From IMG/VR virus record IMGVR_UViG_2894625894_000003, positions 87,535-151,534 of that record: a stretch of DNA of 64,000 nucleotides. One strand, written 5' to 3'. The translations under genes were made by a program, and so were the position numbers. Position 1 is the stretch's first letter; each line of letters starts with the position of its first letter. Below, in pieces: positions 2,934 to 55,372 of the stretch. The notes below the pieces were generated by a model. It saw only the letters and a program-made list of their open reading frames with translations. It was not told the origin of the DNA and did no database searches. The DNA comes from a virus. Its lineage: Duplodnaviria > Caudoviricetes.

Positions 2934-3558
2934 GGGGTGATTGTCTCAGCGATTGGGTGAGTGTCGATAGCAGGTCATGCACCAGATAATCCGGCAGCGG
3001 GCTGGTCTGCTCCAGCCGGGAGATTGCCGGATCGTAGGGATCCACCGGGTACTGGAAAAGGCCCCGTACAGTTACCGCTTCCAGATCGTCTCCAATCAAA
3101 TAGAGATGATCATCTGCCCCCCGGTGGTAGTAGCCCCAGCCGGGTGGATGTTCCTGCCGGTTGAGCAAAGCTGGCCATAAGGCGGGGTTCTTGGGGTGAT
3201 ACCGGCGGGAACCATCCAGGGAAGTTACCAGCAGCAGATCACCGGATTGCCCCGAAAACAGGGCGGGCAGCGGTTGTCGACTTTTACGGAGAGATCGGCC
3301 CGACCCCACCAGCACGTGGGTGGGTAGACCTGGCATCCAGGCAGGTACTTCTGCCGGGTCCAGCACCAGGTGGTCAATGACCTGGTAGAGATTGGTTAGC
3401 TTTAAAATCCGGCGGGAGTCCGAGTCACGCCGGATAAAAACCGAAGCCAGCCGAAGGAGCTGGCGGTACAAATATCGGTTGGAAATTCGACTATCCCTAT
3501 CGACCGACCGTAAATTATTTCGGAGGGTGTAGAGCTGCTCCCCAATAGTTTCGTTCAT
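2866..3558 (-). CDS. Tail ring/structural protein (crAss-type)
   Basis: Start reassigned to ATG 3558 overlapping endolysin stop; DSRISNRYLY N-terminus, VTVRGLF..P and C-terminal D..ND motif. Confidence 0.6.
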   Translation of the reverse strand: MNETIGEQLYTLRNNLRSVDRDSRISNRYLYRQLLRLASVFIRRDSDSRRILKLTNLYQVIDHLVLDPAEVPAWMPGLPTHVLVGSGRSLRKSRQPLPALFSGQSGDLLLVTSLDGSRRYHPKNPALWPALLNRQEHPPGWGYYHRGADDHLYLIGDDLEAVTVRGLFQYPVDPYDPAISRLEQTSPLPDYLVHDLLSTLTQSLRQSPLGIPPDELQNDNRLEKTAGQAQ

Positions 3559-4019
3559 AAGTTTGTACGGAGAAATCCTTTGATCGATGCGGCTTTCCGG
3601 CTTCTCCGGCATACCACGAACCCCTCCCGGCTACCTTCATCGTTGGTATTACCTTCAATGGTATGAAAACGGGTTCCTTCCCGGGTAGCTATCACCTGTT
3701 CGACAATGCCGGCGTGGCCCTGTCCTTTCCCATAATCCATGATAAAAATATCACCGGGACGTACATCATCGGCTTTCACCCGAAGGCTCGTCGAGGAATT
3801 CCACTGTTTGAGGACACCACCCGTTTTAAAGAGAGGGTTGATGTCATTTTGTGCCCTGGCTGCTTTTTCAGCACACCAGTAGCAGAAGGCCATGCACCAG
3901 GCGGCCGGGAAATAAATCCCGACCGATTTGAGGTACTGTTCTACGGAATACCCCCAGTTGGAACCCCGGGGGCTTTCTTCCACGCCAACCTGCGATTGAG
4001 CAGCTTGTAAAAGCGTCAT
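3555..4019 (-). CDS. CHAP-domain endolysin (amidase/peptidase)
   Basis: AAWCMAFC (catalytic Cys), GHAGIV (His), TIEGNTN. Confidence 0.9.
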   Translation of the reverse strand: MTLLQAAQSQVGVEESPRGSNWGYSVEQYLKSVGIYFPAAWCMAFCYWCAEKAARAQNDINPLFKTGGVLKQWNSSTSLRVKADDVRPGDIFIMDYGKGQGHAGIVEQVIATREGTRFHTIEGNTNDEGSREGFVVCRRSRKAASIKGFLRTNL

Positions 4020-5113: not shown

Positions 5114-5497
5114 TTAGTCGATGTAATACGTCAGACCGGTGCCGGTGACGGGTAGCTGGGCCGATCCTCGGCAGGATCGCCAGCCGACCAGCAGCCCCGG
5201 CTGGAGGTACCGGAGCTGATTGGTCTGAGGAAAATCAATCGTAGATCCTGGTGTGACGGACAGGGCTGCGTAGATTACGGCTTGTTTGCCATCTGGGACC
5301 GAGATCCCCCGACCGTCATTGTGTAGGGTCTCGGCGGGGGAAATACGGCAGGAACAGATCTGAAGGCGGGAAGCCAGCTGGTGCTTGACGGTTTCCACAT
5401 ACTGGGGATCCTCGGCCAGCAGTTTAGAAGGGTCTATAAATACCTCCTCGGTAACGAGGGTCTCAGAATCTAATAAGAGTGAAAGCATACTAAACAA
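5114..5497 (-). CDS. Hypothetical protein
   Basis: Co-oriented, overlaps upstream stop. Confidence 0.5.
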   Translation of the reverse strand: MFSMLSLLLDSETLVTEEVFIDPSKLLAEDPQYVETVKHQLASRLQICSCRISPAETLHNDGRGISVPDGKQAVIYAALSVTPGSTIDFPQTNQLRYLQPGLLVGWRSCRGSAQLPVTGTGLTYYID

Positions 5498-7268
5498 GCT
5501 GAAGGGTTACTTTATTGGTATCGAGGTTGACAAAGCAACGGGCCGTGAGCTTTTCGACTCCCTGATCGAAATAGTAGGGAACGTTAACCTGCCCGGTATC
5601 TTTTGAGGTAGAAGTGGTCCCCGAGATATAGAAGTCACTACCGTTTGACCGGGGGGTTGCTACAAGATCACCGGCCTGCGTTCCCTGGGAACCCATAGCC
5701 CAAAAAGGCAGATTTTGAGTGATCAGCGGGGTAAGCTCCGTAACATAAAGGGCGATGGAAACAACTCCGGTATATCCCCTGGCCCGCAGTCGGGCACAGC
5801 TCACCATCATCCGGTTAAATACTTTGGCCGGCGGATTCTCTGGGTAGCCAATACTGTCGAAGCTGGCGGCCAGCACCGCATCGTTGGCTGACGAGCCACC
5901 AATGAAGCGTTGGGATTCATCCCCGTGTTTGGTGATAGCCGACTGGCCGGCATACATACCCGACTCAATCATATACCGGCAGGCGTAATTGACCTGGGGC
6001 GGATTCGGATTCCAGCGGCTGGCGTAGGCTTGTAAAGGTTTGTTATCGTAGTGGAAATTGACCGTTACCACTCCCAGAATATCAGGGGATGGTGTGTCAC
6101 ACTGAGGGCTGACCACTTCGACGGTACGATCATACCATTTACTGCAGTCCACCCCGTTCCAGATACGTACGGTCCAGTACTGTCCCTGCCCCGCCGGGGG
6201 TGCCGCAACCGAGATACTATGGTTACTGGTTGAAAATGTTCCTTCCGGAGACGAGCAGTCGTTGCTACCCTGATACGAGCTACCCTGATAGGTCCGGTAG
6301 CGATTACCGTTGGTAATATTGGACAGCTTCAGGGTTGCCGGTCCCATGACATTATTGACGCAGACGGGCTGATCAACACTCAAATTGAAGGAAGGGTTAA
6401 CCGGTTCAGCCGTACAGGCCGGACTGGTAACGGTGATGCTCTTATCGAGCCAGTCGCCACAATTGGTTCCTTTCCAGATCCGGACCGTGTACGTCTTGGA
6501 TTCACCGGCTGGTGGTGCCGGCACCGGAATATCCACCCAGGTCGAATCAAACGTCCCTCTGGGGTTAACGCAGTCATTGGACCCTTGGTAGGTCGATCCC
6601 TCGGAAATATTATAACGGTCTCCGTTACTGACGGCCGTTACGTTCAGTACCGCATTGCTTAAATTTCCATTGGTGCAGGTGGGCTGGGTAATGCCCAGAT
6701 TGAACGAAGGGGTTGCAGGTCCCGGTGTCTGACAGGAAGGCGTACTGATGGTTACCGGCATATCAAACCAGTCTCCACAGTTGGCCCCATTAAAGGCCCG
6801 GATGACGTAATTCCAGGTCTGTCCTACCGGTGGAGGTGGCAATAACACCGTGCCGGAGTTACCTGACCAAATACCATCGGGGCTGGTACAGTCACCTCCG
6901 GAGACAAACGAGCCATCCCGCAGTAATTTATAGCGGTCGGCATTGACGATGTTACTGATGCTGGCCGATGCATTGGTGGGTGTATTACCCACGCAGGCCG
7001 GCTGAGTAACGGCCGTAATGGAAAATCCAGGCTGGGGCGCCTGGGGTACGGGACAGCTCTTCTGGAAGGTTGTTGAAGCAGGTTCGCAGCCGGCCTTACT
7101 GATGACAACCGTGTAGTTGACTACCTGACCGTTGCGGACCGGGTTGTAAGCCGCCTTGTAGGAGGCATAGTCAAAATCGGTACAACGTTCGGTATTGTCT
7201 CCCTCGGCCTTAATCGAAATGCTGTAGGGGGGCGTTCCCCCCTGAATGATTAACTGAACTTCGGCCAT
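5490..7268 (-). CDS. Fibre/adhesin-like protein with three ~105-aa Cys-containing Ig/SprB-like repeats
   Basis: Repeats begin FSITAVTQPAC / FNLGITQPTC / FNLSVDQPVC and share (D/N)RY, P.PP.G, YxxRxxxG..C. Confidence 0.75.
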   Translation of the reverse strand: MAEVQLIIQGGTPPYSISIKAEGDNTERCTDFDYASYKAAYNPVRNGQVVNYTVVISKAGCEPASTTFQKSCPVPQAPQPGFSITAVTQPACVGNTPTNASASISNIVNADRYKLLRDGSFVSGGDCTSPDGIWSGNSGTVLLPPPPVGQTWNYVIRAFNGANCGDWFDMPVTISTPSCQTPGPATPSFNLGITQPTCTNGNLSNAVLNVTAVSNGDRYNISEGSTYQGSNDCVNPRGTFDSTWVDIPVPAPPAGESKTYTVRIWKGTNCGDWLDKSITVTSPACTAEPVNPSFNLSVDQPVCVNNVMGPATLKLSNITNGNRYRTYQGSSYQGSNDCSSPEGTFSTSNHSISVAAPPAGQGQYWTVRIWNGVDCSKWYDRTVEVVSPQCDTPSPDILGVVTVNFHYDNKPLQAYASRWNPNPPQVNYACRYMIESGMYAGQSAITKHGDESQRFIGGSSANDAVLAASFDSIGYPENPPAKVFNRMMVSCARLRARGYTGVVSIALYVTELTPLITQNLPFWAMGSQGTQAGDLVATPRSNGSDFYISGTTSTSKDTGQVNVPYYFDQGVEKLTARCFVNLDTNKVTLQLV

Positions 7269-7269
7269 A

Positions 7270-7797
7270 TTAACAGGTTGGGTTTACAGCCGTCACCGAC
7301 AGCGTACAGCTGGTAGTACAGGTAACTGGTACCGTCTGATCGGCGGCTTTGCAACTGGCATAGCTGGAATCCGAAGCCCGTACCGTGTAGGTTTTTCCTG
7401 AGCTGACCGCATAGGCTTTGGTGGTACCTGGATTGAGCAGCTCGTTGCTGATTTCGGTCGCTCCGTCGAAGATCTGTACCCGTACCTGCCGGGACTGGGA
7501 AAAATTGACCTGTACATTGATCTTGGGGGCAGCGGCATTCGAGCAGTCGGCCGTGGCAAACAAACTTGGAATGGCGGCACAGGGACAGAGCTGGTTAAAG
7601 CTACTGGTAGCCGCGTTACAGGTGCCATTAGAAACCGATACGTTATAGGTATGTGACAGGCCATCCGGGATTGCGGTAAACTGGGCGGGTGTGGTGCCAC
7701 TCAAATACCGGTTGGTACCCTGCGGGTCGGTATCGGCAGCAATACGAATCGTGAACGGACCCGCCCCACCTGTAATGTTTAAATCTACACTTGCCAT
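7270..7797 (-). CDS. Ig-like virion fibre/decoration protein
   Basis: Beta-rich, paired Cys; N-terminal domain paralogous to neighbours. Confidence 0.65.
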   Translation of the reverse strand: MASVDLNITGGAGPFTIRIAADTDPQGTNRYLSGTTPAQFTAIPDGLSHTYNVSVSNGTCNAATSSFNQLCPCAAIPSLFATADCSNAAAPKINVQVNFSQSRQVRVQIFDGATEISNELLNPGTTKAYAVSSGKTYTVRASDSSYASCKAADQTVPVTCTTSCTLSVTAVNPTC

Positions 7798-7800
7798 AGG

Positions 7801-8349
7801 TTAGTCCACACAGGTGGAATTACTGATTTGAAGGGAGAGAGAACAACCGGCCGGTGGGTTAACCTTGACGGCCAGGGTAATGGGTCGGTTACCGCAACCG
7901 TTGGCAACGGTAACTTTGACGGGGTGAGTGCCCTGGGTGAACCCCCGCAGCCGAATGTAGTTGTGGGTGGACGAGCCCCCCTCGATAGCCACGAGCCCGG
8001 CTGGAACTTCCCAGCTATAGGAGAAAGGAGCCTGGCCACTAATACCCGTTACTGTCAGGACTACTTCCCCACCCTGGGGCATGGAGTCCGAACCCTGAAG
8101 GGATCCCCCAGTGGGAGGTTGACAGGCTGGCTGACAGGTGAGCGACACCTGCCGGGTAGCCGTGCGGATGCCATCAAAAATCTGGATGGCGTAGTTATGG
8201 GTCAACCCATCCGCCTGGGGTGTAAATTCGACATCGAACGCATCTCCCTGCCGGGAATGGCGGAGGTATCGGTTTTCAGTCGAAGGGGGCAGCGTCACCA
8301 GGAAACTGGGATTTTGAGCCCCAGGGTATTTAAACTTGACGCGGCTCAT
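7801..8349 (-). CDS. PKD/Ig-like virion fibre/decoration protein
   Basis: PFSYSWEVP...VTVANGCG PKD-like domain. Confidence 0.65.
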   Translation of the reverse strand: MSRVKFKYPGAQNPSFLVTLPPSTENRYLRHSRQGDAFDVEFTPQADGLTHNYAIQIFDGIRTATRQVSLTCQPACQPPTGGSLQGSDSMPQGGEVVLTVTGISGQAPFSYSWEVPAGLVAIEGGSSTHNYIRLRGFTQGTHPVKVTVANGCGNRPITLAVKVNPPAGCSLSLQISNSTCVD

Positions 8350-8351
8350 GC

Positions 8352-8804
8352 TTAGTAGGATTGTAGGTTAGTACCGGCAACCAGTTGCTCGAAGAGTTGT
8401 CGGAGCTGGGGTGTGCTGCGGATGACACTCAACAGGTTGGCTACGTTGAGGGTGATGACCCGTTTCTGATTGATGCCCGTTCCCTGAAGATCCACTGACA
8501 ACAGGCCCGAATTGTCACTGACCAGCGGTATGGAAACCGTTCCCCCGGATTCAGAGGTACCCGAGGTTTCTTCCAACTCTCCGATTTTCTCATCGATGGC
8601 TTCCAGAATGGCCTCCAGGGGGCTGTCGGAAGGCATACCCAAATTGTCAAGTTGAGATAAGCTGTTGGGACGCCCGGCATGGTATCTGACGCATCCAGCG
8701 TCTATTTCGGCATCACAAACGCCCGACGAACGGCAGGGGTCGGCAACAACCGGTGGGCAGTTTCCGCAGGGCACGGAAGAGCCGCATGGTGTTTGTTGGC
8801 ACAT
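8352..8804 (-). CDS. Cys-rich structural protein
   Basis: CVRY...LG...PLEAILEAIDEKI motif shared with 16700-17660 genes. Confidence 0.6.
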   Translation of the reverse strand: MCQQTPCGSSVPCGNCPPVVADPCRSSGVCDAEIDAGCVRYHAGRPNSLSQLDNLGMPSDSPLEAILEAIDEKIGELEETSGTSESGGTVSIPLVSDNSGLLSVDLQGTGINQKRVITLNVANLLSVIRSTPQLRQLFEQLVAGTNLQSY

Positions 8805-9680: not shown

Positions 9681-12600
9681 TTATGGATTCGTGGCCGTCA
9701 GATCCCGGTAAGAGATCCATTTTATTTTCAACTCCTCGTTGGTCAGCACCGTATTGTTGTTTCGTTTACGGAGCACGAACGTCGTGATGTCGGTATTGTC
9801 CCAGTTGGCCATACCCGTCATATCGATTTCTACCGTATGAAACTGACCATCATTGGCGACATTGAACTCTTTAAAAAATTCGCCCGAATTGACCAGTCCA
9901 GGTTTTACCCACCGCAACCACATGGCCCCGTCGGATGAAGTCAGCGCCATCCGTACATAGATCTTTTTGACTGTGCGGCCATTGATCCACCGTTCAGGCA
10001 GCGACACATTGTAGTCCCTTCCCGCGTTCTCCGTGTTAACCAAAGGTTTGACGGACAGGTACGAGGTAATGTTCTTTTCCAGCTGGTCTTCCGCTTTATG
10101 AAGAAAGAAACCCAGGCGGGATTTGCTGTTAAAGATGTATTCCGGTAAACCATTCCACTGAGCCTTCAGCCGGGTAAGACTGTTGACATAGGCCCGTATT
10201 TCGGCCTCGGTACCCTCCATGAAAGCCGCATCGAAGTCGTAGACACCATCCTTATCAATGCTCATCAAGGGAGCGGCTGCGAAATAGTTCGAGTTAAAGC
10301 TGGTCGGTTTATTGCTGGTAAAATTCTCCAGGTTAAACCCACCCACCGCAAACCGCGCATTATTACTAATGATGGCAATGTAGCGATCCAGCGTCCGGTG
10401 TTTCATCAGGATTACCGGTTCGGAGCCAAGTATAGGCGGGGCCGCGATGCCCCCCATGGCTTCGTTGTAGGAATACTCGATGAGTGGGGCGTTGGTAAAG
10501 GGCTGACCGGCAATGTAAAAAACCCGCTTGTAGTCAGTAGTCGTATACCAGCAGGGGGCCTCTTGCTGGCGGGGAGTAGGATATTTTGTTGAATAGGAAT
10601 CATTCCGGTCCATCTCCCAGCGGGCATGACGACGAACGACTTTCGAGTTACTTGGATCGAAATCAATCCAGCCCTTCATTTTCATCCGCCCGAAAATACC
10701 CGCCATGTCCCACTGGGCGGGCGTTGTTTCGTAGAACAACCTCGAACCACTGTTATGCAGGACAAGTGTATTACCGTACGTAGGATTCATCCCCGTACTA
10801 CCTCCTTGCACGGGATTGTAACCAATACTGCCGGCACCAGCGGGATGAAATTGTCCCGTTGATTGCCCTGCTTCGGTATAGTGCCCCTCACTATTTGGCC
10901 CCACATCGCCCCGTGGGTAGCCGTACATGGCATCCATGAGCTGGCGCCCCGCGTCGTCTTTTTGATTATCGGGCCAGATGGGGGAATTGACGGCACTAAA
11001 CAGACCACCATCGAACGACATGTAATCGATGACACTACCGAGCTTCGTGTTGACCGCAACCCGGGTATTGCCATTGATGATAAAGGCCCGAGGGAATTGG
11101 AGCGTGGCTGATGGCCGGTTTAGCTCGGGTAGATTAACATACGTACTGTTATCGGCATACAACCCGCCATAGCCCGTTGTGGGTACATTGGGAGTACCGG
11201 TTGTAATACTCGCCAATCCCTGAGCAATCCGTTTGGCAATCTCCAAATGTCCCGCATCATTCCAGTGAGCAGCTACACCCGAATGGGCATTCGGATTTGG
11301 TGGATCAAATTCCGTGGCCCGGTAGGCAGGGTAATCAACCCGGTCCGAGAAACTAATAAAGGTATAACCCCGCGAGGTCGCATACTCCTGAGCAGCGGCC
11401 GTTGACGTGGAATGGCCCGACCAGAAAGCCCCCCGAATCAGAATCCGACAATCACTGGTTTTAGGTATACGGCTGATTACCTGGTCGAGTCCAGCAAAGT
11501 ATTTTGCCTTGTCGAAGCTGGCTTCATAGATATTTTCCCCAATACTGATAACAATAGCCCCGAATGCCGGAGGGTTGTTACTAAACTGGTAATTGAGGTC
11601 CCCGGTGATTCGACTATTGTAGTCGTAATTACCATCCAGATAGGAATAGGTCTGTCCCTCGAAAGGAGCCCCGTGGGAACTACCGTAGACTTGTGCCGAG
11701 GGGTTAACCGTCCGAAGCATAGCCTGCAACCGGTGGACATAGTCCATCTCCAGGCTGCTGGCCGACATCCCGTTGCTACGCGGCCAGCCCGTAAACGAAC
11801 CCGCATAGGTAAACGAGTTACCAAAAACGTAAACGTAGTTGATACTGGGCAATCCCGAAATAATGGTCGTATTATCGGGCGGGGTGACTGTGGCTGAACC
11901 AGGCCGGCTGATTCGGATACTTTCGGACGCTAAGTAGGCCGTGGGGGTGATAGTAACGGTATTACTATTCTGAACAAAGCCTGCCACTACTGCCGTCAGG
12001 GACTTTATCTGCCCCCCTGTTCCGGCAAAGGAAAGGGCTTGAGGGGTGCCCCCGTTTACCGATACATTGGCCGTACCGGGTGTTGACGTACTCTGGTAGT
12101 TGAGCACCAGCGTATAACTCCCGGGACCAGGTACGTTGGGAATAGTATACGTTAAAGCTCCATCTTTGATTTTCCCCGATGGTGCATCTGGTTTATCCCA
12201 AATTGAACCAGGGCCTTCAGCTAAATAACTCGGAAAGGTCTGATCATAGGCCAGTACCGTTTCACTACCACATCCGGTTACTGACTGCCCAATGGTGATT
12301 GTCTTTGCCGGACAGTTGGCTTTGGTGGCTGTGGCGGTATAAAAATAGGTACCGTTGGTGGAGAGCTTGGCGGAAACCGTCTCGCCCGTAGATGATAAAA
12401 GACCGGCCCCCGTCCAGCTATAGCTAACCCCGTCACAGTTAGAACCTGCACAGGCAACCGAAAGGGAAAAGTTTGTATTACAGCCAACGCCAACTGGTAG
12501 AACCGTTGCCGTCAGCGTACCCATACAACTAGGTGTGGGGGTGACAGCATCCTTAATTACCCGTTCGGGCATGGCTTCACTGTTGGACGCCGTATATCGG

Positions 12601-14423
12601 TAATCGCCTGCCCAGGTAAACGTTTCCCCGTAAATATTGGTGAACCGCACCCGCATGTGCTGGGGCAGTAGTTGCACCCCCGCTGGCACATCATCGGGTT
12701 TGTAGGTATCAATGAAAGGTGCCCGCCCTTTGAGGGTAAAGAAGGTTGATTTACTCTTCCAGGTACCCGTATCCCACCAGACGTTGACAGTGACCTCATC
12801 TTCAGGATCCAATATTGGCCAGGCTGCCACCAGCTGGACATAGTTACCCGTTTCCGAGATACGTCCCCGGATAATAGGCTCGTTCCATTTATCAGGAGTA
12901 GCACTAATGGCCCGGATTGGCCGGATCCAGTAGTGATTACCCCAGGGCAGGTGATCAAATTCAGATGCCCGGTGGAGTGCTTTGGTAACCACTTCCCACT
13001 GGCCCAGACTGCTGGTATAACCCATCGAGCCACCCCGCTGGCCGGGAAAGTCAACCCTGTTTTCGTGACTGAGTGGTCCCCGTTGTAAATACTCCGAGTG
13101 CCACATCAAATCAGCATCGTGGAGCAGATACCGGAACAGCATACCGGCTTCCAGCCCTTCGGGATTCAGAGGCCGGCTATCTCCCTGTCCGGGTGCATTG
13201 GCTTCCTCGGTATGAACCCGGTACCAGTCTCCTGTCTTGATGTTGGCAAATTCAGCCCGGCGATCATTCTTTCGGAGCGGGTACTGTCCGCCGTTTAACC
13301 ACCAGCGGTGGGCATCATCAAACTGAACGTCCTCATAGAGCCAGGAGGTCCACCAATCGTATTCATTCTCGTTGTAAAAGTTGGGATCCTTGCCGTATAC
13401 GGTAAAGGTTTTGCCGTAAAGGGTTACCTGGCTATTATCCTCCCGAAGGATACGGCGCCCATTGACGAGCTTGTAGGACCCATCTCCATTTTTCTGGTAG
13501 ATGGTTCCCTGGCCAATGGTGTTTTTCCAGTAGTGGTCCCCCGAAGCGATACCACCCCCATTTGCTCGTAGGGCCTGGGCAATCGGAGAGTTCACATCGA
13601 CGGCCGCAATCTCGGAAAAACCCTTCCAGTACATGTTGTTGAGAAACTCCCGGTTTTCGTACCAGAGTTTACCACCAATGACCCGTCCCTGGTCGGCATG
13701 CCCCTTGTAGCTCATGGTGTTCGGGGCAACCTTCTGGCCGTAGGTAAACACCTTCGAGCCTTCACAAACTTCCAGAGCACCCAGGTAGAGATTACCCAGA
13801 AAGGTTCGCATGACTGTCTCGCCCCCCGCATCCCAGTAGTGAGCCGACTCCTCATCGATGGATATATATTTTGGGATCTTACCCCCACATATATCGTTTT
13901 TTAAAACGCCCCCAATCCAGCGGCCCATCAGCTTGGCGGCTTCCGTATTGGCCGTTGGAATCAGGCTATTGATGTATTTGCCGATTTCAGTTTTACGGGC
14001 ATCGGAGCTGGGTAGGCTGTTATAGGCGTTCTTAAAGGCATCCGGCATATTTGCCGGGCTTCCTGGCATATAGAAGACAGCAAACATCTTCTGCCCATCC
14101 AGACCCAGATCACGAGCATCTTCCGAATTGCCCGTTGTTTGGTAGAAGAACTGGGGAGCCATCTGGCTATAGCCGTGGCGAAGAGCGTCATCATCCCACT
14201 CTCCCGGAGCTCCGGGAGACTTGCGGAAGCGGGGTCCCCAGTAGAGTACATCATGCGTAGGCAGGGCAAAGCGGGGAAAGATCCGCCAGTTGACGACGGC
14301 TTTGGCGGCCTGCTGGGGCAATGGGTAGTCATTACCCTTGGGTCGCAGGTAATTCCGCATTATCTGGGCCGGCGAGAGCTGGCTAACCAGCAACAGCAGG
14401 GCTAAGAGAATCCGTTTGTTCAT
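9681..14423 (-). CDS. Large multidomain secreted-type protein with Ig-like, CBM-like and SGNH/GDSL hydrolase domains
   Basis: Signal peptide MNKRILLALLLLVSQLSPA-Q; FGNSFT, IGEN and HWNDAGH SGNH blocks; CBM6/35-like segment. Confidence 0.7.
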   Translation of the reverse strand: MNKRILLALLLLVSQLSPAQIMRNYLRPKGNDYPLPQQAAKAVVNWRIFPRFALPTHDVLYWGPRFRKSPGAPGEWDDDALRHGYSQMAPQFFYQTTGNSEDARDLGLDGQKMFAVFYMPGSPANMPDAFKNAYNSLPSSDARKTEIGKYINSLIPTANTEAAKLMGRWIGGVLKNDICGGKIPKYISIDEESAHYWDAGGETVMRTFLGNLYLGALEVCEGSKVFTYGQKVAPNTMSYKGHADQGRVIGGKLWYENREFLNNMYWKGFSEIAAVDVNSPIAQALRANGGGIASGDHYWKNTIGQGTIYQKNGDGSYKLVNGRRILREDNSQVTLYGKTFTVYGKDPNFYNENEYDWWTSWLYEDVQFDDAHRWWLNGGQYPLRKNDRRAEFANIKTGDWYRVHTEEANAPGQGDSRPLNPEGLEAGMLFRYLLHDADLMWHSEYLQRGPLSHENRVDFPGQRGGSMGYTSSLGQWEVVTKALHRASEFDHLPWGNHYWIRPIRAISATPDKWNEPIIRGRISETGNYVQLVAAWPILDPEDEVTVNVWWDTGTWKSKSTFFTLKGRAPFIDTYKPDDVPAGVQLLPQHMRVRFTNIYGETFTWAGDYRYTASNSEAMPERVIKDAVTPTPSCMGTLTATVLPVGVGCNTNFSLSVACAGSNCDGVSYSWTGAGLLSSTGETVSAKLSTNGTYFYTATATKANCPAKTITIGQSVTGCGSETVLAYDQTFPSYLAEGPGSIWDKPDAPSGKIKDGALTYTIPNVPGPGSYTLVLNYQSTSTPGTANVSVNGGTPQALSFAGTGGQIKSLTAVVAGFVQNSNTVTITPTAYLASESIRISRPGSATVTPPDNTTIISGLPSINYVYVFGNSFTYAGSFTGWPRSNGMSASSLEMDYVHRLQAMLRTVNPSAQVYGSSHGAPFEGQTYSYLDGNYDYNSRITGDLNYQFSNNPPAFGAIVISIGENIYEASFDKAKYFAGLDQVISRIPKTSDCRILIRGAFWSGHSTSTAAAQEYATSRGYTFISFSDRVDYPAYRATEFDPPNPNAHSGVAAHWNDAGHLEIAKRIAQGLASITTGTPNVPTTGYGGLYADNSTYVNLPELNRPSATLQFPRAFIINGNTRVAVNTKLGSVIDYMSFDGGLFSAVNSPIWPDNQKDDAGRQLMDAMYGYPRGDVGPNSEGHYTEAGQSTGQFHPAGAGSIGYNPVQGGSTGMNPTYGNTLVLHNSGSRLFYETTPAQWDMAGIFGRMKMKGWIDFDPSNSKVVRRHARWEMDRNDSYSTKYPTPRQQEAPCWYTTTDYKRVFYIAGQPFTNAPLIEYSYNEAMGGIAAPPILGSEPVILMKHRTLDRYIAIISNNARFAVGGFNLENFTSNKPTSFNSNYFAAAPLMSIDKDGVYDFDAAFMEGTEAEIRAYVNSLTRLKAQWNGLPEYIFNSKSRLGFFLHKAEDQLEKNITSYLSVKPLVNTENAGRDYNVSLPERWINGRTVKKIYVRMALTSSDGAMWLRWVKPGLVNSGEFFKEFNVANDGQFHTVEIDMTGMANWDNTDITTFVLRKRNNNTVLTNEELKIKWISYRDLTATNP

Positions 14424-14465: not shown

Positions 14466-16700
14466 TTAGATGTCGGTATTCTGGGTACCGTCCAGGATAG
14501 GGGCTTGCTGGAGGGTGAAAGGGGTACTTTCGTAGTCGTTCCGGTTTTCACCACCCGACCAAATCTCATTGTAGGGCTGGTGGCCTCCCGGATCCGGGTT
14601 GGTTGGGGTATCGCCCAGCGTCGTGACGCAGAACACCCCACCGTAGGCCGACACCCCAACATTGTTTTTGGCCCGAACACGGTAGCAGTATTGCGTACCG
14701 GCCGTTAGTCCCGTATCGGTATAGTTGGTGGTATTGGCCGGAAGAGGGGCCAGGAGAGTAAAACCACTCACTGCACTGAGGGACCGTTCCAGCTCGTAGC
14801 CCGTTTCGTTGGTGGCACTGTCAAACCAGCTGATACTAATGACACTGCTGGAGAGGGCCAGTGCCGACAGCAGTGATGGGGCGGCCGGTAACGTAGGCTG
14901 CACAGGAGCCGGCTCAAAATACACGGCACCTAATGAGTCGGTACCGGAAACAAAACCAAATGGGGGCTCTAGTCCAGTCGGTTTAGCGAGTCCTCCTAAC
15001 CCCGTCGTTCCACCGGCCAGGCAGTTATCGGCAATGGTCTTGGACATGGTCACATCCGATCGGGTACGTACGTTATTGCCAACGGGGTAATACCGACCCA
15101 GTGCCAGATCCGCTGCCGACTGTAATACCAGCACCCAGCCACTGCTGAATTCTTTGGTCCGGATGGCAATACTCTGGCCATTGACCAGCCGAACACCCAC
15201 CTGTTGATCTTCTTCCATCATACAGGGTACTACCGGAGGGGTAACGACGGTAAAGGTCGCCGTCTTGGTATCGGTCAGTCCTAACTCGTCGGTTGTCGTC
15301 AGGGCAACGGGGTAAATACCCACTTGGGTAGGTGTGCCCGATGCAACGCGACCCGCACCGGAAATACCGGGAGGCAAACCATCCCACTGGTAGGAAAGGC
15401 TATGGCCGTCACTATCCGTTGATTCGGGAGCCGTATAACTAAAGGCTACACCCCGCGTCAGGGTTTTATTGTCGATAGGAGCTCCGACGGGTGGATGGTT
15501 GACTGGATCCGTCGTCGATAGAATCCGGGTTTCAGCATGGAGCACCTTCCCACAGTTATTCAGGGTGAGGATCACTAGCTGGCGAATGACGCCATTTTCC
15601 TCCTGGAGGCTGGTGGCAATGTAACCACAGGCTATGGGCGGATATACCCCGTTTTTGATATAGAGTACACTACTATTTTGTACGGGAATTGGCGTACTGA
15701 CGGGTACCTGTTCTTCGACAAGCTGGTAACCGCTCATCACTACACTTCGGAAGGACGGCTGTTGCAGCCAGTTAATCAGGCTGGCCTCGGAGCGAAATGG
15801 TTCCGCTGGCAGGTTTCCTTTTTTCCGAAGCACCGCCGTCATCAGGGGCCAATTCTGAATCTGAGTGGGCGTATAGGTGGCTCCCTGGCAAGCCTGATTA
15901 CAGGGAAAATCATCCAGCACGTGGGTAAAGACAACCTCAGATGATTTACAGGGTGGATCCGTGATGGTCTCCAGGTAGACACTATAGCTACCGGCTGGAA
16001 TAGGAATACCCAGGGAGAAGAGCACCGTGCCGTCGGTTTCCGCCCGGGCGCTGCCACTTTGAATGGTTACCCCCGTACTGGAAAGAATATAGCACCGATA
16101 CGGACCGGGGTTGGCACCTGTTCCCAGTGTGATGCGGTAGGTGCTACCGGCCTGTCCGGGTGGGGTGTCGATCCGATCGATCTGCTTGATGGGCAACCGG
16201 CAGGGTGTGGCATTGAGAACGACGATGGGAAACCGGGTTTCAATTTCCCCACAGGGGTTTTTAATTTTTACCGTCAGCGAAGCATTACCCGGTTGAAACC
16301 AGCGTACCGATACGGTAGGGGCATTGGCCCGGCCTTCAATACTTCCCCCGTAGCAGGTCCACTCATAAGTAAACTCGGGGGTACCATCGCTGGCAACAGT
16401 ATAAGCCAGCAGCCGGTCTGGCTGGGGCGTTTTCTCTCCCGTCAACAGCGCCGTGGTGACGGGCCGACAGGCTGTACCGACCGTAATATGAGCCGTGTAG
16501 GATTCCGAACGGCCGCTGCTCTCGGTGACGGTAATTACGTAAGCATGGGGCTTACCATCCGAGAGGGCATCGAACTGGATCGTCAGCTGGTCGTCATTAG
16601 CCGCGTACTGACGAAACCGTTCGGTGTCGGGGTCCCCTTCCATCCGGACCGAAATCTGATTCGGTACCAGGTTGGTGAGTTTGATGTAGGTTTCCGTCAT
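14466..16700 (-). CDS. Multidomain Ig-like protein (PKD, He_PIG-like, FN3), fibre/decoration
   Basis: NHPP...DSDGHSLSY..GLPPG..SGTPT (He_PIG-like); PAAPS..W.D...NETGYELER...YTDTGL..GTQYCYRVRA (FN3). Confidence 0.8.
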   Translation of the reverse strand: MTETYIKLTNLVPNQISVRMEGDPDTERFRQYAANDDQLTIQFDALSDGKPHAYVITVTESSGRSESYTAHITVGTACRPVTTALLTGEKTPQPDRLLAYTVASDGTPEFTYEWTCYGGSIEGRANAPTVSVRWFQPGNASLTVKIKNPCGEIETRFPIVVLNATPCRLPIKQIDRIDTPPGQAGSTYRITLGTGANPGPYRCYILSSTGVTIQSGSARAETDGTVLFSLGIPIPAGSYSVYLETITDPPCKSSEVVFTHVLDDFPCNQACQGATYTPTQIQNWPLMTAVLRKKGNLPAEPFRSEASLINWLQQPSFRSVVMSGYQLVEEQVPVSTPIPVQNSSVLYIKNGVYPPIACGYIATSLQEENGVIRQLVILTLNNCGKVLHAETRILSTTDPVNHPPVGAPIDNKTLTRGVAFSYTAPESTDSDGHSLSYQWDGLPPGISGAGRVASGTPTQVGIYPVALTTTDELGLTDTKTATFTVVTPPVVPCMMEEDQQVGVRLVNGQSIAIRTKEFSSGWVLVLQSAADLALGRYYPVGNNVRTRSDVTMSKTIADNCLAGGTTGLGGLAKPTGLEPPFGFVSGTDSLGAVYFEPAPVQPTLPAAPSLLSALALSSSVISISWFDSATNETGYELERSLSAVSGFTLLAPLPANTTNYTDTGLTAGTQYCYRVRAKNNVGVSAYGGVFCVTTLGDTPTNPDPGGHQPYNEIWSGGENRNDYESTPFTLQQAPILDGTQNTDI

Positions 16701-17182
16701 TAACAGTAGACCTCAAGCGTGGATACATCCGGCTCCGCGACAGGTTTGGTAATCTTGTCGATGTAGGCCGGGTTTTTTGAAATCAGATCGACCAGGGCCG
16801 CTACGTCCAGACAGGCCATGATCTCCCCGTTGTCAATCGTGAGTTTGATGAGCTTGTCGGGACAATCCTTGACCTTTAAGGGAGCCTGCTTGATCAGACA
16901 GAGCTCGGTATCGACGGCCTGGGCAAAGTCAGCCCAGCTGCTGATTTTATAGGATTTGGTCAAGCAGCACAGCTGACCCATCTGCATACTGCAGAGCCGA
17001 TCATCGATCTTTTCCAGGATCCGCTCCAGACTAGTACCATTCTTAATCCCCAGGCATCGGAGCTTAGAGGGTATGTTGGTATTACAGTGGTAGGTAATCC
17101 GGCTACTGTCGAAGGGTCCTACGGCCCGGCAATCCGGCGCCGGAGGGGGCTGGGGAGTGGTGCAGGGAGATTGGTTATTCAT
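16700..17182 (-). CDS. Cys-rich structural protein
   Basis: CLGIKNGTSLERILEKIDDRLC motif; TAATG coupling. Confidence 0.65.
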   Translation of the reverse strand: MNNQSPCTTPQPPPAPDCRAVGPFDSSRITYHCNTNIPSKLRCLGIKNGTSLERILEKIDDRLCSMQMGQLCCLTKSYKISSWADFAQAVDTELCLIKQAPLKVKDCPDKLIKLTIDNGEIMACLDVAALVDLISKNPAYIDKITKPVAEPDVSTLEVYC

Positions 17183-22406: not shown

Positions 22407-24104
22407 TTAATCGTAGTCGAGTGGGTCTTCGCGTTCGATCAGGATTACGCGACTTGGGTCTTTAAGCCATACTTCACCCGCCCAGAACAATTTGATTTTG
22501 AAGCCAAAGAAGTCACCCGAGCTGATGTGGGCGTTCTTACCGGCACCGGCATACTGCATGAGGAAATCCGGGCAGTAGTCACCGATCTGGAAGACCGTAT
22601 GGGTGTCTGCGTAGTTCTTCGGCTTGAGCATAACGATGTTCTTGCCGTTGTTGAAACTATCTACCTGACCCTGTGGAATGGCATTGGAGAAGGTAGGATC
22701 GGTTAGATCCTTCACTAAAATAGAGTACGAGCTGTTCGGATAACGGCCGTAGAAGGTCGTCTCCGATTTGGTGCCCTCAAAGTCAAGCGCTGGGTTGTGC
22801 TCGATCATTACCTCACCGGCTTCGGGGAAGTTATAGGACACGAATCGGAACCCACCGTAACGCAGGTTCATCGAATCACCCGACAACAGACCCTTCAGGG
22901 CTGGGTGGTCAGCTAGTACTGTGAATGGGTTGTCCTTACGGTACTCCTGGGCAAAGGCTTTCTGAATTTCGATGAGAGCCCCCATGCCCATCTCGAATTT
23001 CACCCGGCGCATGTGCATCGGCAGATCCGAACGCCCGTAGAACATGGTACCCACCACGTCTTTCAGGATGTTGAGCAGCTGGCGGGTATCCGAATACTGT
23101 CGGTACATCCCCGTTTTCAGCTGTGGATAGAGACCCATACCCACGCGGGCCATCGTACCCCGGCCGTCGTAGATCACCCCACCGGTATTCCACATGCAGT
23201 GCATTTCCTGCATACGGGCCTGTTCGCGGTAGAGCATCTCGATGATGGTTGGCATCCAGCGGCCAGACCCTTTAACCTGCTTGGAGCGGTCGTAGCGGTC
23301 CTTGTTGTTTGGATCGTAGGGATCCCCCATCGTCTCAAACATGTAGACAATAGAAGCCAGGTGTGGGTTGCAGTACTGGTTCAACAGGCTCTTGTCCATT
23401 CCTTCCGGAATTTTCTTGAGCTCGATCATATCGGCATTACCCGTCATTACGTGCTCCAGGCCCTGCAGGGTCTCCCCCGTCTGGAACATGAGCGTCTCGT
23501 AACCGTCCGAGTCATTGCTGATGGCCGAATTCTCGGTTGACCATTCGGTTTTGATATGGCCGATTTTAAACCATTCCACGTCCGGCTGCAGGAACTTGCG
23601 AGGTACGTACGCCTTGGGATCGGTGGACTTCACCCGCAGACAGTACTTCCAGCCCGAACTATACGGCTCCACTTCCTCGTCGAAGACCACGTAACACTGG
23701 ACACCGATTCGGCGGTTGTAGGTCAGAATGTCCCCTTTCTGGTAGCGGTTGGTGTCGAGTACCGTATAAAACTTCTCCCGGCCAATACCAACGCGGTCCT
23801 GGTCGCCGGCAATGTCTTCCAGTACTTTGGGCAGGCTGGTTTTGTAGGGAACCGTGTAGGTCAGCTGCTCCCCCATCGTGTTGGTATACTGAACGTTACC
23901 GCTCAGCTCCGTCATCGAGATGATAGGGGTATTGACAATCTGGTAGTGATTCCAGAGTTTAAGCAGACCCAAATACTGCTGTTGAGAACCAAGCATCTGG
24001 GTAACCGTATTGGCTTCCGTGTGTTTAGTGCCCAAATTCAGCTGGGTTCGGCCCATGGCTACGCCATGCTGCAGGCCGTTCACTGGTGATCCAGGTTGAA
24101 TCAT
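22407..24104 (-). CDS. Major capsid protein (crAss-like, HK97 fold)
   Basis: 565 aa; GMGLYPQL, GFRFVSY..P..G.V.IEHNPALD, C-terminal G.VWLKDPSR; position after scaffold. Confidence 0.85.
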   Translation of the reverse strand: MIQPGSPVNGLQHGVAMGRTQLNLGTKHTEANTVTQMLGSQQQYLGLLKLWNHYQIVNTPIISMTELSGNVQYTNTMGEQLTYTVPYKTSLPKVLEDIAGDQDRVGIGREKFYTVLDTNRYQKGDILTYNRRIGVQCYVVFDEEVEPYSSGWKYCLRVKSTDPKAYVPRKFLQPDVEWFKIGHIKTEWSTENSAISNDSDGYETLMFQTGETLQGLEHVMTGNADMIELKKIPEGMDKSLLNQYCNPHLASIVYMFETMGDPYDPNNKDRYDRSKQVKGSGRWMPTIIEMLYREQARMQEMHCMWNTGGVIYDGRGTMARVGMGLYPQLKTGMYRQYSDTRQLLNILKDVVGTMFYGRSDLPMHMRRVKFEMGMGALIEIQKAFAQEYRKDNPFTVLADHPALKGLLSGDSMNLRYGGFRFVSYNFPEAGEVMIEHNPALDFEGTKSETTFYGRYPNSSYSILVKDLTDPTFSNAIPQGQVDSFNNGKNIVMLKPKNYADTHTVFQIGDYCPDFLMQYAGAGKNAHISSGDFFGFKIKLFWAGEVWLKDPSRVILIEREDPLDYD

Positions 24105-25534: not shown

Positions 25535-28300
25535 TTATTTGGATTTATCGCCCATAACACGGGCATTCTGATTTTTCTGGGCTTGAAGGCGGGCTTGCTG
25601 GGCGAGAGTCTCCCGTTTTAGGGTCCGGTCTTTCTCCCGATTCTGGTTATCCAGCAATAGCTTTAAGCGATTGTCGTCCTGTTTGCGGGACTCCAGGTCG
25701 AGTTTGGCCTGGTCGGTCTGGGACTTCTGGTTGAACTTGTCGTACTCCAGTGCATCGGGTGTCCCTGAGTTGTCGGTATCGCCCATGGTGGCATTGTTGC
25801 GCCCCCCGAACGTACGGATGTAGGCCTGCCGTTCTTCGGAAGCCCGGTCGAGCTGGTTTTCGTTGGACTCCCAGGTCTGCTGGTCTTTCTGGAGCTGAGC
25901 TTTCTGATCGATTTCGGCCTGCTTCTGCTCGAAGGCAGCCTGCTGGTTTTGTCGGTCTTCGTCTTCCCCCTGACGGAGTAGTTCCAGGATTCGTTCGACG
26001 GAGTTGGTCGATACCATCTCCACCCGGTCCGAAATCCGGGTTAGCATGGTATTATTTTCGATACCCAGCTGGCGGATCGTCTCCAGAATACGGCGTTCCT
26101 CCTGGGCATCGGTAACGTACACCGATAGCTGGGCCAGCAACAGATCCATCCGGTTGAGCCGCAAAAAGGCATTGGAAAAGTCACTGTTGGTAGCAGCGGC
26201 AACGATGTCTTCATTACGACATTCGACGTACTGGGCAAAGTCGAGGTCTTTCTTGAGCACCCGTTGTTTGTACTGGTAGAATCGGGTGAAGATGCTGGAT
26301 GTCTGAACGTAGGAATTCTGGGTAGCCGTCTGAACGCCGGTAGCGGTCTCGTGAGCTTTGATGTCGGCCATCCGCTGGGGAGCCATACCCAGCTGTTCGA
26401 GCCCCATCTGTTTCATGTTCCGGGCCAGCTCGTAGCGGGCCAACATGCGACTGGTGGCTTCCAGGTTGATAACAGCCGGCAGCTGGCCTCCCCCGTTGGC
26501 TCCCTGGAGCTGGTGAGGCCGGGTATCGACGGGAGCCACCCGGATGGACCGGATGGATTCCATCCATTTTTCCCAGCCATCTTCCCCACCCCAGTCCTTG
26601 ATGTTAGGAATGGCATTGACATCCAGCATCATAAAGGGCAGCACCTCTTCCTCGGCAATTAGCACGGCCTGGTTCATAAACAGGTTGTGACTAATCTGGA
26701 AGGGCTTGATGCGGTCGACTACCGACTGGGACTTGGCATTGCGGTTATTAAAGACCTCACCGACTACTGGCAGTTCACATTCGTAGAGAAAGCCGTCTGG
26801 TTTACCCTGAAACTCCAGGGGTTTGATATTCAGATACAGGGGTTTCTGGGTTGTAGCGGTTCCGAGTGGAGTGATCTTGATACCACCCCAGACCTCATTG
26901 ATCCAGGTGTACTCGATGGTCGGACGACCGTCCCAGTCACTAGCCGGTTCTTCCCCGTAGAGGTTACCCGATACTTCCCGAATATCGGCAGGCAGCACCA
27001 CCGATTCATCGACAATGACCTTTTCAAAGAGGCTCGTCTGGGGATTGATCCAGCTGAGCTTACCCAGCTTTTTCTGGGATTTCCAGTAACCTTCCGTTAC
27101 CTGGTAGAGGTTATTGATGTAGGCGCCGTAGTTGGAGATCTGATCGCTAACCTGGAAAAGCTCATCGTACCAACCAGGTCCGGTCGTCTGACTGACCTGG
27201 GGAAACATAGTCATCATCCAGGGATTGTTGGTCGGGATCCGGCTGGCATAGGGCAACCCGTCGGGCGACAGGTAGCTAATGTTATTACCGAACCAGTCTT
27301 TCGGTTTCCACCCACCCTGATACTGAGCCGGAAGCTGGCCGTGGAGCTCTTCCAGCTGCTTGCCACTCATCAGGTGGCCGTAGCGGTCGATGATGTCGGA
27401 CAGTGAGAGGATAAAGGTGCGACCAACATAGTTGCCCTTTTCAATTTCCCGGACTTCGGGAGACTTATGAAAAAACGTGTGGACTGGGTTCCAGGTCTCC
27501 TGGGTGTAGCCCGTGCCGGTCAGATAGAAATGCCGGAAGCAACGGTCGGCAGCCATTTTATCCCGGAATTCGGTCTGGAATTTTTCGTCCGTACGGTAGC
27601 GTTTCCGGTTGGCCTTCATGCGGGTGTTGGCCCACTTGGCGGCTACATGCTGCCATTTGGTATCCATGTACCGCTGAATCTCGGGAGGTGTCATGGCCTG
27701 ACGAGCCTCCTGAAGCTGCTGGTCATAGGCCTGGGCTTCCTCGGCTGAGCTGAAGTCAGACCGGTTGGGATCGAGTCCCATCTGGGCCAGCTGCCGGTCG
27801 ATGTTTCGATTGACCTGCTCATGGACATAATCCTTCAGCATACGGGCCTTCTCGGCTTCTCGCTGGGAGTTGATCCAGTCTCCTTCGGCTATGGCCCGAA
27901 ATGTGTCGGGGTGGCTTTCCAACTCACCGCTCAGGGTGTTGATGATCTGGCCGGTAAAATCGAAATGTTGCAGCCGGCTGGGAAGCTCGAATTTTTTCTG
28001 AACGGCTGCCAGCAGGGATACGTATTCGTTCTGGTCAACGTCTTCGTAATGGTAGCGGATAAATTCACCGTTCCCAATCCGGTAGTTTTCCCGTAGCTGC
28101 AGGTTGTCCCAGTACTGAGCCCGTCCGACGGCTTCCAGTGCATCCAGGTTGTGGTGCTTCCAGTCCTCATTTTTCTCCGAAGCCGGTAGCATTTGTGGCG
28201 GAAAATTCCCCACCAAAGTGGGAATGCCAGACGGAATAAATGGGTGTTGAAGCAAGGTTTTAGGCGGGATAGAAAAATGATCAGGCAAGTTTACCGCCAT
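25535..28300 (-). CDS. Portal protein (crAss-like)
   Basis: 921 aa; PPQMLPASEKNEDW, W.NEVWGGIKI, S.VD.IKPFQ..N, LGMAPQR, ETATGVQ motifs. Confidence 0.9.
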   Translation of the reverse strand: MAVNLPDHFSIPPKTLLQHPFIPSGIPTLVGNFPPQMLPASEKNEDWKHHNLDALEAVGRAQYWDNLQLRENYRIGNGEFIRYHYEDVDQNEYVSLLAAVQKKFELPSRLQHFDFTGQIINTLSGELESHPDTFRAIAEGDWINSQREAEKARMLKDYVHEQVNRNIDRQLAQMGLDPNRSDFSSAEEAQAYDQQLQEARQAMTPPEIQRYMDTKWQHVAAKWANTRMKANRKRYRTDEKFQTEFRDKMAADRCFRHFYLTGTGYTQETWNPVHTFFHKSPEVREIEKGNYVGRTFILSLSDIIDRYGHLMSGKQLEELHGQLPAQYQGGWKPKDWFGNNISYLSPDGLPYASRIPTNNPWMMTMFPQVSQTTGPGWYDELFQVSDQISNYGAYINNLYQVTEGYWKSQKKLGKLSWINPQTSLFEKVIVDESVVLPADIREVSGNLYGEEPASDWDGRPTIEYTWINEVWGGIKITPLGTATTQKPLYLNIKPLEFQGKPDGFLYECELPVVGEVFNNRNAKSQSVVDRIKPFQISHNLFMNQAVLIAEEEVLPFMMLDVNAIPNIKDWGGEDGWEKWMESIRSIRVAPVDTRPHQLQGANGGGQLPAVINLEATSRMLARYELARNMKQMGLEQLGMAPQRMADIKAHETATGVQTATQNSYVQTSSIFTRFYQYKQRVLKKDLDFAQYVECRNEDIVAAATNSDFSNAFLRLNRMDLLLAQLSVYVTDAQEERRILETIRQLGIENNTMLTRISDRVEMVSTNSVERILELLRQGEDEDRQNQQAAFEQKQAEIDQKAQLQKDQQTWESNENQLDRASEERQAYIRTFGGRNNATMGDTDNSGTPDALEYDKFNQKSQTDQAKLDLESRKQDDNRLKLLLDNQNREKDRTLKRETLAQQARLQAQKNQNARVMGDKSK

Positions 28301-37096: not shown

Positions 37097-37550
37097 CCGG
37101 TTTATTTCCTTCATATCCCCGTTCCAGTACATCCTTTAATCGGGCGGTTCGGCTGCTGGTTGACCCCCGAAAGGTAAATCGAGGATTGACAATATAGGTC
37201 CCTTTGGCACTGGACAGCAAGGCCTTATGACTCTTTAGCTCGTAGATCACATTGGATACCGTTTTGGGACTGATTCCAAAATGATCGGCAATTTCCTCCC
37301 GTAATCCCTTATTGATAGCAAAGGTACGGCCGTCCCCATTCTGGCGGGCCAGGTATCCATATACCATTATCTCCGGACAGGGATTTAATTTATTAAGCAT
37401 CTCCCAGAAATCATCGTATACCATGTTGTAGGGTTCTTTGGCATTGACCAGGTATTGGTGTTTGGTTACTGACCGGTTAACTACCTTTCCATCGTGGTCC
37501 ACGGTCATAGACTCTTCGACTAATCCTGTCTTTAAATATGGTTTATCCAT
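37074..37550 (-). CDS. RepL-like winged-HTH protein
   Basis: EIADHFGISPKTVSNVIYELK HTH plus YIVNPRFTFRG RepL-type motif; start at ATG 37550 below -7 box TATATTTG (37576-37583). Confidence 0.75.
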   Translation of the reverse strand: MDKPYLKTGLVEESMTVDHDGKVVNRSVTKHQYLVNAKEPYNMVYDDFWEMLNKLNPCPEIMVYGYLARQNGDGRTFAINKGLREEIADHFGISPKTVSNVIYELKSHKALLSSAKGTYIVNPRFTFRGSTSSRTARLKDVLERGYEGNKPVKEAEWI

Positions 37551-37610
37551 TATACCCGTTTTAACCAGCTGGAAACAAATATACCGATTCATTTTATTTT
37601 ACCCAACTCA

Positions 37611-55290: not shown

Positions 55291-55364
55291 GCATTCGTAG
55301 CTCAATTGGATAGAGCACCTGACTACGGATCAGGAGGTTTGGGGTTCGAATCCCTACGAGTGCA
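55291..55364 (+). tRNA. tRNA-Arg (anticodon ACG)
   Basis: GCATTCG/CGAGTGC acceptor stem, D-arm, CCTGA-CTACGGA-TCAGG anticodon arm, GGTTCGAATCC T-arm; CCA not encoded. Confidence 0.97.
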
Positions 55365-55372
55365 CTAGAAAG

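Follow-up and report, generated by a model that had tools for sequence, protein, structure and literature searches.

In chaperone-usher pili an incomplete immunoglobulin-like (Ig) fold is completed by a terminal strand of the neighbouring subunit; the donor strand is N-terminal, the strand missing from the acceptor is the core G strand, and both a chaperone and an usher are required. In the type V pili of Bacteroidia (FimA/Mfa1) a C-terminal donor strand fills the place of the N-terminal strand that the acceptor has lost, and base and stalk pilins carry such donor strands whereas tip pilins have none (PMC13655056). Terminal arms also add strands to the sheet of a neighbour in the "handshake" of contractile sheaths and in the donor-strand exchange of extracellular contractile injection systems (PMC13266070). 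Here we describe a 64,000-nucleotide stretch of viral DNA (the window in what follows; positions 87,535 to 151,534 of IMG/VR record IMGVR_UViG_2894625894_000003), in which three adjacent genes, A, B and C, are best explained as three separate tail fibre proteins of an integrated crassvirus-like phage. Judged from homology, one Ig-like repeat is cut at each of the two gene boundaries, its first strand ending the upstream protein (we call this strand the tag) and the rest of the domain beginning the downstream one (the acceptor). This split arrangement suggests, without proving it, a plug-and-socket join between the fibre proteins.

The phage domains are clear homologues of the SprB/PKD-like Ig arrays found in type IX secretion system (T9SS) adhesins of Bacteroidota (PF13573, PF19408), with which they share both the motif (...P..L.L....N..C-loop-G.IDL.V.GG..PY...nGC...) and the fold. 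In the adhesins all the strands of a domain lie in one chain, whereas in the phage a stop and a start occupy the loop after the first strand's cysteine, and extra cysteines flank the tag and the last strand. The phage chain would resemble type V pili in its C-terminal donor, its donor-less tip and the phylum of the host. Type V pilins, however, have a transthyretin-like two-domain fold and form homopolymers after extracellular removal of the acceptor strand by a protease; in the phage the strand is missing genetically, the chain would be an ordered heteromer and assembly would be cytoplasmic. No sequence homology between the two was found, although none was sought. With chaperone-usher pili the common feature would be the incomplete Ig fold completed by a neighbour's terminal strand, while their donor position, core strand and need for chaperone and usher do not apply to the phage. 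The sheath and injection-system handshakes differ in being homo-oligomeric lattices of another fold, and they are not fibre joints. Among phage fibres, that of T4 (gp34-gp35-gp36-gp37) is similar in that adjacent genes build one fibre, and there too gene order may follow assembly. We know of no phage fibre joint that uses a genetically split Ig domain, and a literature search turned up none. The tail fibres of crAss001 are multi-protein (gp22 and further fibre proteins) and were too flexible to be modelled in the atlas of its virion, within which disulfides between subunits, together with C-terminal arms, hold the parts in place (PMC10172136).

Split repeats in the fibre genes

The three genes and their relevant parts are the following.

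7801..8349, minus strand: gene A, 182 amino acids; its N-terminal domain is strand-less and degenerate, a PKD-like domain follows, and a tag forms the C-terminus
7804..7845, minus strand: tag A, CSLSLQISNSTCVD, residues 169-182, an amphipathic strand between two cysteines
7270..7797, minus strand: gene B, 175 amino acids; an acceptor domain is followed by another beta-sandwich (residues 75-160) and, at the end, a tag
7579..7797, minus strand: acceptor domain of gene B, residues 1-73, MASVDLNITGGAGPF...NQLCPC, Ig-like, first strand absent
7273..7308, minus strand: tag B, CTLSVTAVNPTC, residues 164-175, preceded by ...TTS
5490..7268, minus strand: gene C, 592 amino acids, with an acceptor (1-72), three complete repeats (82-390) and a distal domain (393-592)
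7053..7268, minus strand: acceptor domain of gene C, MAEVQLIIQGGTPPY...FQKSC

All three proteins begin, right after Met-Ala, with a SprB/PKD-type Ig domain of about 70 residues from which the first beta-strand is missing. The acceptor profile matched gene B (N-terminus MASVDLNITGG) with an E-value of 5.4e-31, residues 1-78 of gene C (MAEVQLIIQGG) with 2.8e-30 and residues 1-78 of gene A with 3.7e-23, gene A being itself a row of that profile. The following domain of A (residues 83-157) matches Pfam PKD_6 (29.2 bits, cutoff 25); the SprB family PF13573 itself scored 15.4 bits only, against a cutoff of 28. Both A and B end in a 12-residue amphipathic strand with the consensus C-x-[LI]-x-[LIV]-x-[IVA]-x-N-x-x-C, the C-terminus of A reading ...PPAG-CSLSLQISNSTC-VD. 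Gene C has no C-terminal tag, and its internal repeats (residues 82-179, 189-285 and 294-390) hold their first strand within the same chain. Its acceptor is 47% identical to the N-terminus of P0004, from a distant crassvirus contig. The distal domain is similar to viral "tail fiber protein" clusters and to TerD-like sandwiches (template modelling scores of 0.54-0.57), and the relative P0003 has four repeats and a different distal domain. A check of the open reading frames (ORFs) returned the terminal and starting peptides of A, B and C exactly as the preliminary description of this DNA had given them, and its statement that the internal repeats of 5490-7268 (residues 82-390) retain their first strand was likewise correct.

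At the A/B junction (...TGT GTG GAC TAA CCT ATG GCA...) stop and start are three nucleotides apart and in the same frame; at the B/C junction (...ACC TGT TAA T ATG GCC...) the spacer is a single nucleotide and the frame shifts by +1. In-frame stops lie 2 and 6 codons upstream of the start codons of B and C, so that no alternative start could add a first strand to either protein. The read-through translation of A and B, with TAA read as Q (P0001), was searched against 1.84 billion representative proteins. It retrieved 613 matches, mostly giant multi-repeat proteins (1000-6700 amino acids, with 10-50 matched stretches each), and the best stretches, at residues ~134-202, crossed the stop at position 183. 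After re-alignment of the junction segment with HMMER, 743 of 747 stretches, from 129 giant Bacteroidota proteins, spanned the tag together with the next strand, and the Cys-to-GG spacing across the A/B junction was canonical (13-14 residues). A typical repeat reads GTYTVTVTDANGC..tItEP.aLsLs..vtN.sC.G..dGsIDLtVtGG..PYtY, to be compared with GTHPVKVTVANGCGNRPITLAVKVNPPAGCSLSLQISNSTCVD*PMASVDLNITGGAGPFTI in the window, where the asterisk is the stop. Since the window aligns to unbroken repeats with normal spacing, the stop and the Met-Ala start replace the small loop that follows the cysteine of the first strand. A profile of the N-terminal domain (alignment A2) matches proteins with PF13573 SprB repeats and T9SS sorting domains at E-values down to 1e-18. 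The earlier proposal that the gene boundaries fall inside one SprB repeat is confirmed at the level of sequence: the cut lies between the first strand and the rest of a SprB/PKD-type repeat, and at neither junction is the domain a single polypeptide, both being split by a stop and a start.

Only three of the ORFs of at least 80 amino acids in the six frames of the window end in Cys, and two of these three directly precede a gene for a strand-less domain. Gene A, which ends C-V-D and not Cys, does so too. The rarity of ORFs ending in Cys, together with the conservation of the arrangement in independent assemblies, puts it beyond chance.

Conservation of the junctions

Split repeats occur in eight diverged metagenomic loci, mostly of crassvirus type (L001, L002, L003, L004, L005, L006, L014 and L015), crassvirus markers being recorded for L002 and L005 only. 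L001, at 62-74% identity, keeps all three genes, both tags and both starts, as well as the gene of a 150-amino-acid protein upstream of A, in the order 150-amino-acid gene, A' (ending CSLTLTLTNPSCIG), B' (ending CSLTVTASNPTC) and C' (starting MAEVTLTIAGNDPPY); C' has one extra repeat and a different distal domain. A small conserved gene (5114-5497, minus strand, in the window; L001:4336-4731) overlaps or follows the end of gene C and is kept in both phages though the distal domains of C differ; it might be a fibre chaperone or assembly factor. In L002, a crassvirus contig of low G+C on which Crass_capsid and ring genes are found, the C-terminus of a 303-amino-acid protein is a Pro-rich linker followed by CSINIQVSNIQC; the next protein starts MASVDINIVGA... 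and ends ...NINNTSC, and the one after it starts MAQLTLTVTGA.... The succession of tag, stop and Met-Ala acceptor is found again around homologues of gene B in L003/L004, L005, L006, L014 and L015. Six B homologues (P0014, P0040, P0065, P0094, P0162 and P0183) have the same Met start and end at the last cysteine of the tag, and all of the short B homologues (8/8) share this start and end exactly at this residue.

In a census of the window and nine loci, an acceptor gene came next after all 10 of the genes with a tag and after 11 of the 77 tag-less genes, the loci being not all independent and most of the acceptors having belonged to the profile that found them. The spacers at the junctions measure 0, 1, 3, 15, 16, 38 or 49 nucleotides, the frame offsets are 0, 1 or 2, and every stop is TAA; B/C itself is shifted by +1 in the window and in frame in L001. 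As the stops and starts are conserved and the frames vary, A, B and C have to be separate proteins.

Some features of these spacers deserve description. Phages of very different G+C have almost the same letters, TGTTAATATGGC (Cys-stop, one base, Met-Ala), at the stop/start (window 7268-7275, L002:8183-8193, L005:5540-5552 and L006:4069-4079); this may be a preferred termination-reinitiation context. The 49-nucleotide spacer of L003 (5523-5571), between a tag gene and an acceptor gene, contains a hairpin (GGCCTGA...TCAGGCC) followed by a T-run, an arrangement resembling a terminator or attenuator within the fibre cluster. A different organisation is seen in L016 (6001-14598), where consecutive long fibre genes (865, 857 and 1228 amino acids) have similar N-termini and no tags; the 857-amino-acid gene, the only one of the three scored, has an E-value of 7.9e-13 against the acceptor profile.

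The B family is rare. Among viral contigs (IMG/VR) no relatives of B or C were detected by the methods tried, and a DNA pattern for M-A-x3-L-N-I-T-G-G gave unrelated matches only; tblastn of B against GenBank phages gave no match. Across 401 genomes of the host's order the family was present in the window's genome only, plus one weak match in a 2514-amino-acid open frame, and ten further genomes of the same genus gave no match to the B-family profile.

The tag and its fit to the acceptor

Within the B family no segment is better conserved than the tag, whose mean pairwise identity is 0.56, compared with 0.41 over the whole protein and 0.35 over the second domain. In tag B the residues C164, P173 and C175 are invariant and hydrophobic positions alternate. 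Its higher conservation and the exact end of the proteins at its last cysteine indicate that the tag is under selection. Moreover, tags end L002-303 and L003-324, which are unrelated proteins without an acceptor domain. In an AlphaFold2 model of the A+B read-through the second domain of B (model residues 261-340) is predicted with a predicted local distance difference test score (pLDDT) above 90 and ends before the tag. The tag of B (348-360), which has nothing after it, is coil with a pLDDT below 50; tag A, with an acceptor following, forms a strand (E170-175). These observations support the tag being a conserved, portable element and not a part of the last domain of the protein that carries it, and its being conserved, amphipathic and disordered when alone makes it look like a binding strand. 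As far as its sequence tells, it is homologous to the first strand of the SprB repeat, the very strand that is missing from the next domain.

The fit was modelled with a 98-residue construct made of the last 18 residues of A, the read-through codon and the first 78 residues of B, using a 16-row alignment of which 5 rows span in-frame junctions. AlphaFold2 gave a pLDDT of 87.8 and a predicted template modelling score of 0.77. The tag forms strand 8-18 (pLDDT 79-84), followed by a two-residue turn and strand 21-29, with which it probably pairs in a hairpin according to the model. Superposed on whole PKD domains, the model (range 3-94) covered 83 of 84 residues of 6aem_A (Z 7.7) and 80 of 81 of 4l9d_B (Z 7.5), a middling Z with coverage from end to end. 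From this end-to-end superposition, tag and acceptor together make one complete PKD-like domain, and the acceptor alone is that domain without its first strand. A search of the PDB with the tag-plus-acceptor profile returned nothing under an E-value of 0.1, and Foldseek with the four-domain A+B model returned generic Ig or FN3 strings only.

Sequence and one-chain model agree in showing a strand-less sandwich and, at the terminus of the neighbouring protein, a strand of the right kind, as in donor-strand systems. The model supports compatibility, and compatibility only, of the tag with completion of the downstream N-terminal domain. The preliminary description had held that the C-terminal strand of one protein completes the Ig fold of the next; this stands as regards the split, the homology and the one-chain fit (AlphaFold2 and PKD superposition), and its extension to separate chains is weighed below.

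A possible fibre chain and its alternatives

The likeliest mechanism, to which we give about an even chance, is docking between separate chains, in which the tag of one fibre protein would serve the N-terminal domain of the protein encoded next as its first strand. It would complete an Ig fold across chains and join the proteins head to tail in gene order, from the base through A and B to C, and the tag-less C would be the distal, receptor-binding tip. The 1-3 nucleotide spacers between stop and start would give coupled, equimolar synthesis of the partners. The chain would probably hang on one of the small proteins with a Cys-rich N-terminus, such as the one encoded directly upstream of A.

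8352..8804, minus strand: 150-amino-acid protein encoded directly upstream of gene A; Cys-rich at its N-terminus, tag-less, syntenic in L001

This protein has no Pfam match. N-termini like its own precede the chains in L002, L003 and L005, and there are three such genes in the window; we infer that it is a candidate fibre base or hub anchor. That separate chains dock, that gene order decides the partner and that a disulfide might lock the joint are inferences. The lock is speculative: tag and acceptor last strand both have the spacing C-x10-C, which would fit one or two intermolecular disulfides.

"Polymerisation", the term used in the preliminary description, does not suit these genes. Donor-strand systems have a homopolymerised stalk, whereas here three different proteins, the last of them (C) tag-less, could build no more than a hetero-chain in the order A-B-C that ends in a tip. 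The likeness to pilin complementation drawn there also fails for the type of strand, which is the edge strand A here and a core strand in chaperone-usher pilins.

A number of findings weigh against docking between chains. In the AlphaFold2 models that lend support, tag and acceptor belong to one chain, and the program is expected to fold any unbroken homologous repeat likewise. Because the missing strand is the edge strand of the PKD-like sandwich, complementation would be weaker than in pilins unless locked, and the acceptor may be stable without it; the N-terminal domain of gene A, which has no donor, is predicted with a pLDDT of ~75 (AlphaFold2). Acceptors without an upstream tag are found in gene A, L006-174, L014-176, L002-628 and at least two consecutive L016 genes, so that the socket is either filled by a strand of some other protein or stable while empty. 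The cysteines do not cleanly co-vary across junctions: comparing by eye the last cysteine of the tag with that of the acceptor "NGxC", ~9 pairs have both, 2 the tag cysteine only, 3-4 the acceptor cysteine only and 2 neither. Long forms of the B family (P0064, P0076, P0088 and P0127) contain an internal tag-like strand ("CD.D/F...NP.PDQV") followed by a different domain that is not an acceptor. Lastly, the natural fusions at the same junctions that the preliminary description had proposed to look for did not appear, no fusion of tag and acceptor having been found in the phage family.

The same data can be read as a conserved gene fission with no docking between chains. The strand-less domain would then act autonomously as an adaptor, fixing the fibre proteins one by one to the tail (for instance to a hub or base protein), and the tag would have another role, such as binding a different virion protein, a chaperone or a receptor, or aiding folding. 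We think this unlikely, though it carries real weight. Acceptors without an upstream tag, including those of at least two consecutive L016 fibre genes, speak for it, as do a module common to four proteins of the window, a donor-less gene A domain that is predicted to fold, and the absence of precisely a PKD-like edge strand. It accords poorly with the invariable succession of tag gene and acceptor gene (10/10), with the homology of the tag to exactly the strand that the next domain lacks, and with a tag that is the best conserved segment and yet is predicted to be disordered alone. Folding back of the tag within its own protein, on the last domain or on its own N-terminal domain in the manner of a circular permutation, is improbable. 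The long B-family forms, which hold the strand internally, and the short linker (TTS) between the second domain of B and its tag would suit such a fold; but that second domain reaches a pLDDT above 90 without the tag, which is coil, and the tag-plus-acceptor model is confident without the upstream domain. L002-303, whose tag stands behind a Pro-rich linker, and L003-324 are tagged yet lack an acceptor, so that self-complementation is excluded as a general rule.

Two further explanations would do away with the split itself. Programmed read-through or frameshifting would yield a fused A-B-C with the domain in one chain. A and B are in frame across a single TAA and the fusion folds well in the 98-residue model, but homologous junctions have frame offsets of 0, 1 or 2 and spacers of 0-49 nucleotides, B/C is +1 in the window and in frame in L001, a hairpin and T-run separate the two L003 genes, every acceptor keeps its own Met-Ala start, and no suppressor tRNA was found in the window. 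We consider this very improbable, and programmed recoding is excluded by the lack of any conserved frame relation (offsets 0, 1 and 2; spacers of 0-49 nucleotides) and of a suppressor tRNA in the window. An error of assembly or sequencing, or recent pseudogenisation of one long SprB-like gene, has in its favour the homology to unbroken repeats and nothing else, and we give it practically no credence. The same stops and starts are present in eight other independent assemblies at 30-74% identity, and these comparative data refute both sequencing error and recent decay, which the preliminary description had named among the things that would overturn its interpretation.

A second candidate pair and the genomic context

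Another pair of genes in the window may be a second, more degenerate tag and socket.

16700..17182, minus strand: 160-amino-acid gene, with a Cys-rich N-terminus and the ending VSTLEVYC
14466..16700, minus strand: gene of a 744-amino-acid PKD/fn3 protein with an acceptor-like N-terminus, overlapping the stop of the 160-amino-acid gene by 1 nucleotide

Residues 13-80 of the 744-amino-acid protein, which is absent from the acceptor profile, match that profile with an E-value of 4.8e-11. Inside the same fibre operon lies the gene of a 1580-amino-acid protein (9681-14423, minus strand) with a typical Sec signal peptide (MNKRILLALLLLVSQLSPAQ) and no Pfam match at an E-value of 1e-3; its downstream neighbour, a gene of 281 amino acids, has a syntenic counterpart in L001.

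A minus-strand structural operon of a crassvirus-like phage takes up the left 28 kb of the window. The window covers 504-568 kb of a 574-kb bacterial contig, in a genome of 7.5 Mb. Its landmarks are these.

25535-28300: portal gene, matching phrog_6547 (E 8e-94)
22407-24104: major head protein, Pfam Crass_capsid PF23898 (E 9.7e-15)
3555-4019: CHAP lysin
53823-55157: tyrosine integrase (Arm-DNA-bind_5, SAM_5 and Phage_integrase domains), adjoining tRNA-Arg
55291-55365: tRNA-Arg(ACG) gene

The truncated last gene of the window has a weak match to crAss_MUZ (muzzle; E 2e-5, under the curated cutoff). Matches to capsid, portal and muzzle flank the fibre genes, as in a Crassvirales structural module, and related loci contain CrAss_Ring_1 and CrAss_Ring_2. 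Near 36 kb of the window the G+C content falls from ~0.55 to ~0.45. Given this drop and the integrase beside tRNA-Arg, the phage is probably integrated in the bacterial contig, which is unusual among phages of this kind. The lower-G+C stretch between structural genes and integrase also encodes a RepL-like replication protein (37074-37592) and a UmuC/ImpB-type Y-family polymerase (42994-44328).

Implications for crassvirus fibres

We propose tentatively, at slightly less than an even chance, that multi-protein fibres of the crassvirus type are built from split Ig domains, with a 12-residue C-terminal plug and an N-terminal socket, possibly stapled by disulfides, as a natural SpyTag-like system whose modules can be swapped gene by gene. 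If this is false, there remains a clean, conserved domain split by gene fission with its orphan strand retained, which needs another explanation. If it is true, we are aware of no earlier phage fibre joint of the donor-strand type, and it would supply a small natural pair of peptide and domain for protein engineering. The tag-and-socket rule gives a concrete assembly order for crassvirus fibre proteins from gene order alone, and the joint, if real, would account for the gene-by-gene modularity of receptor-binding clusters.

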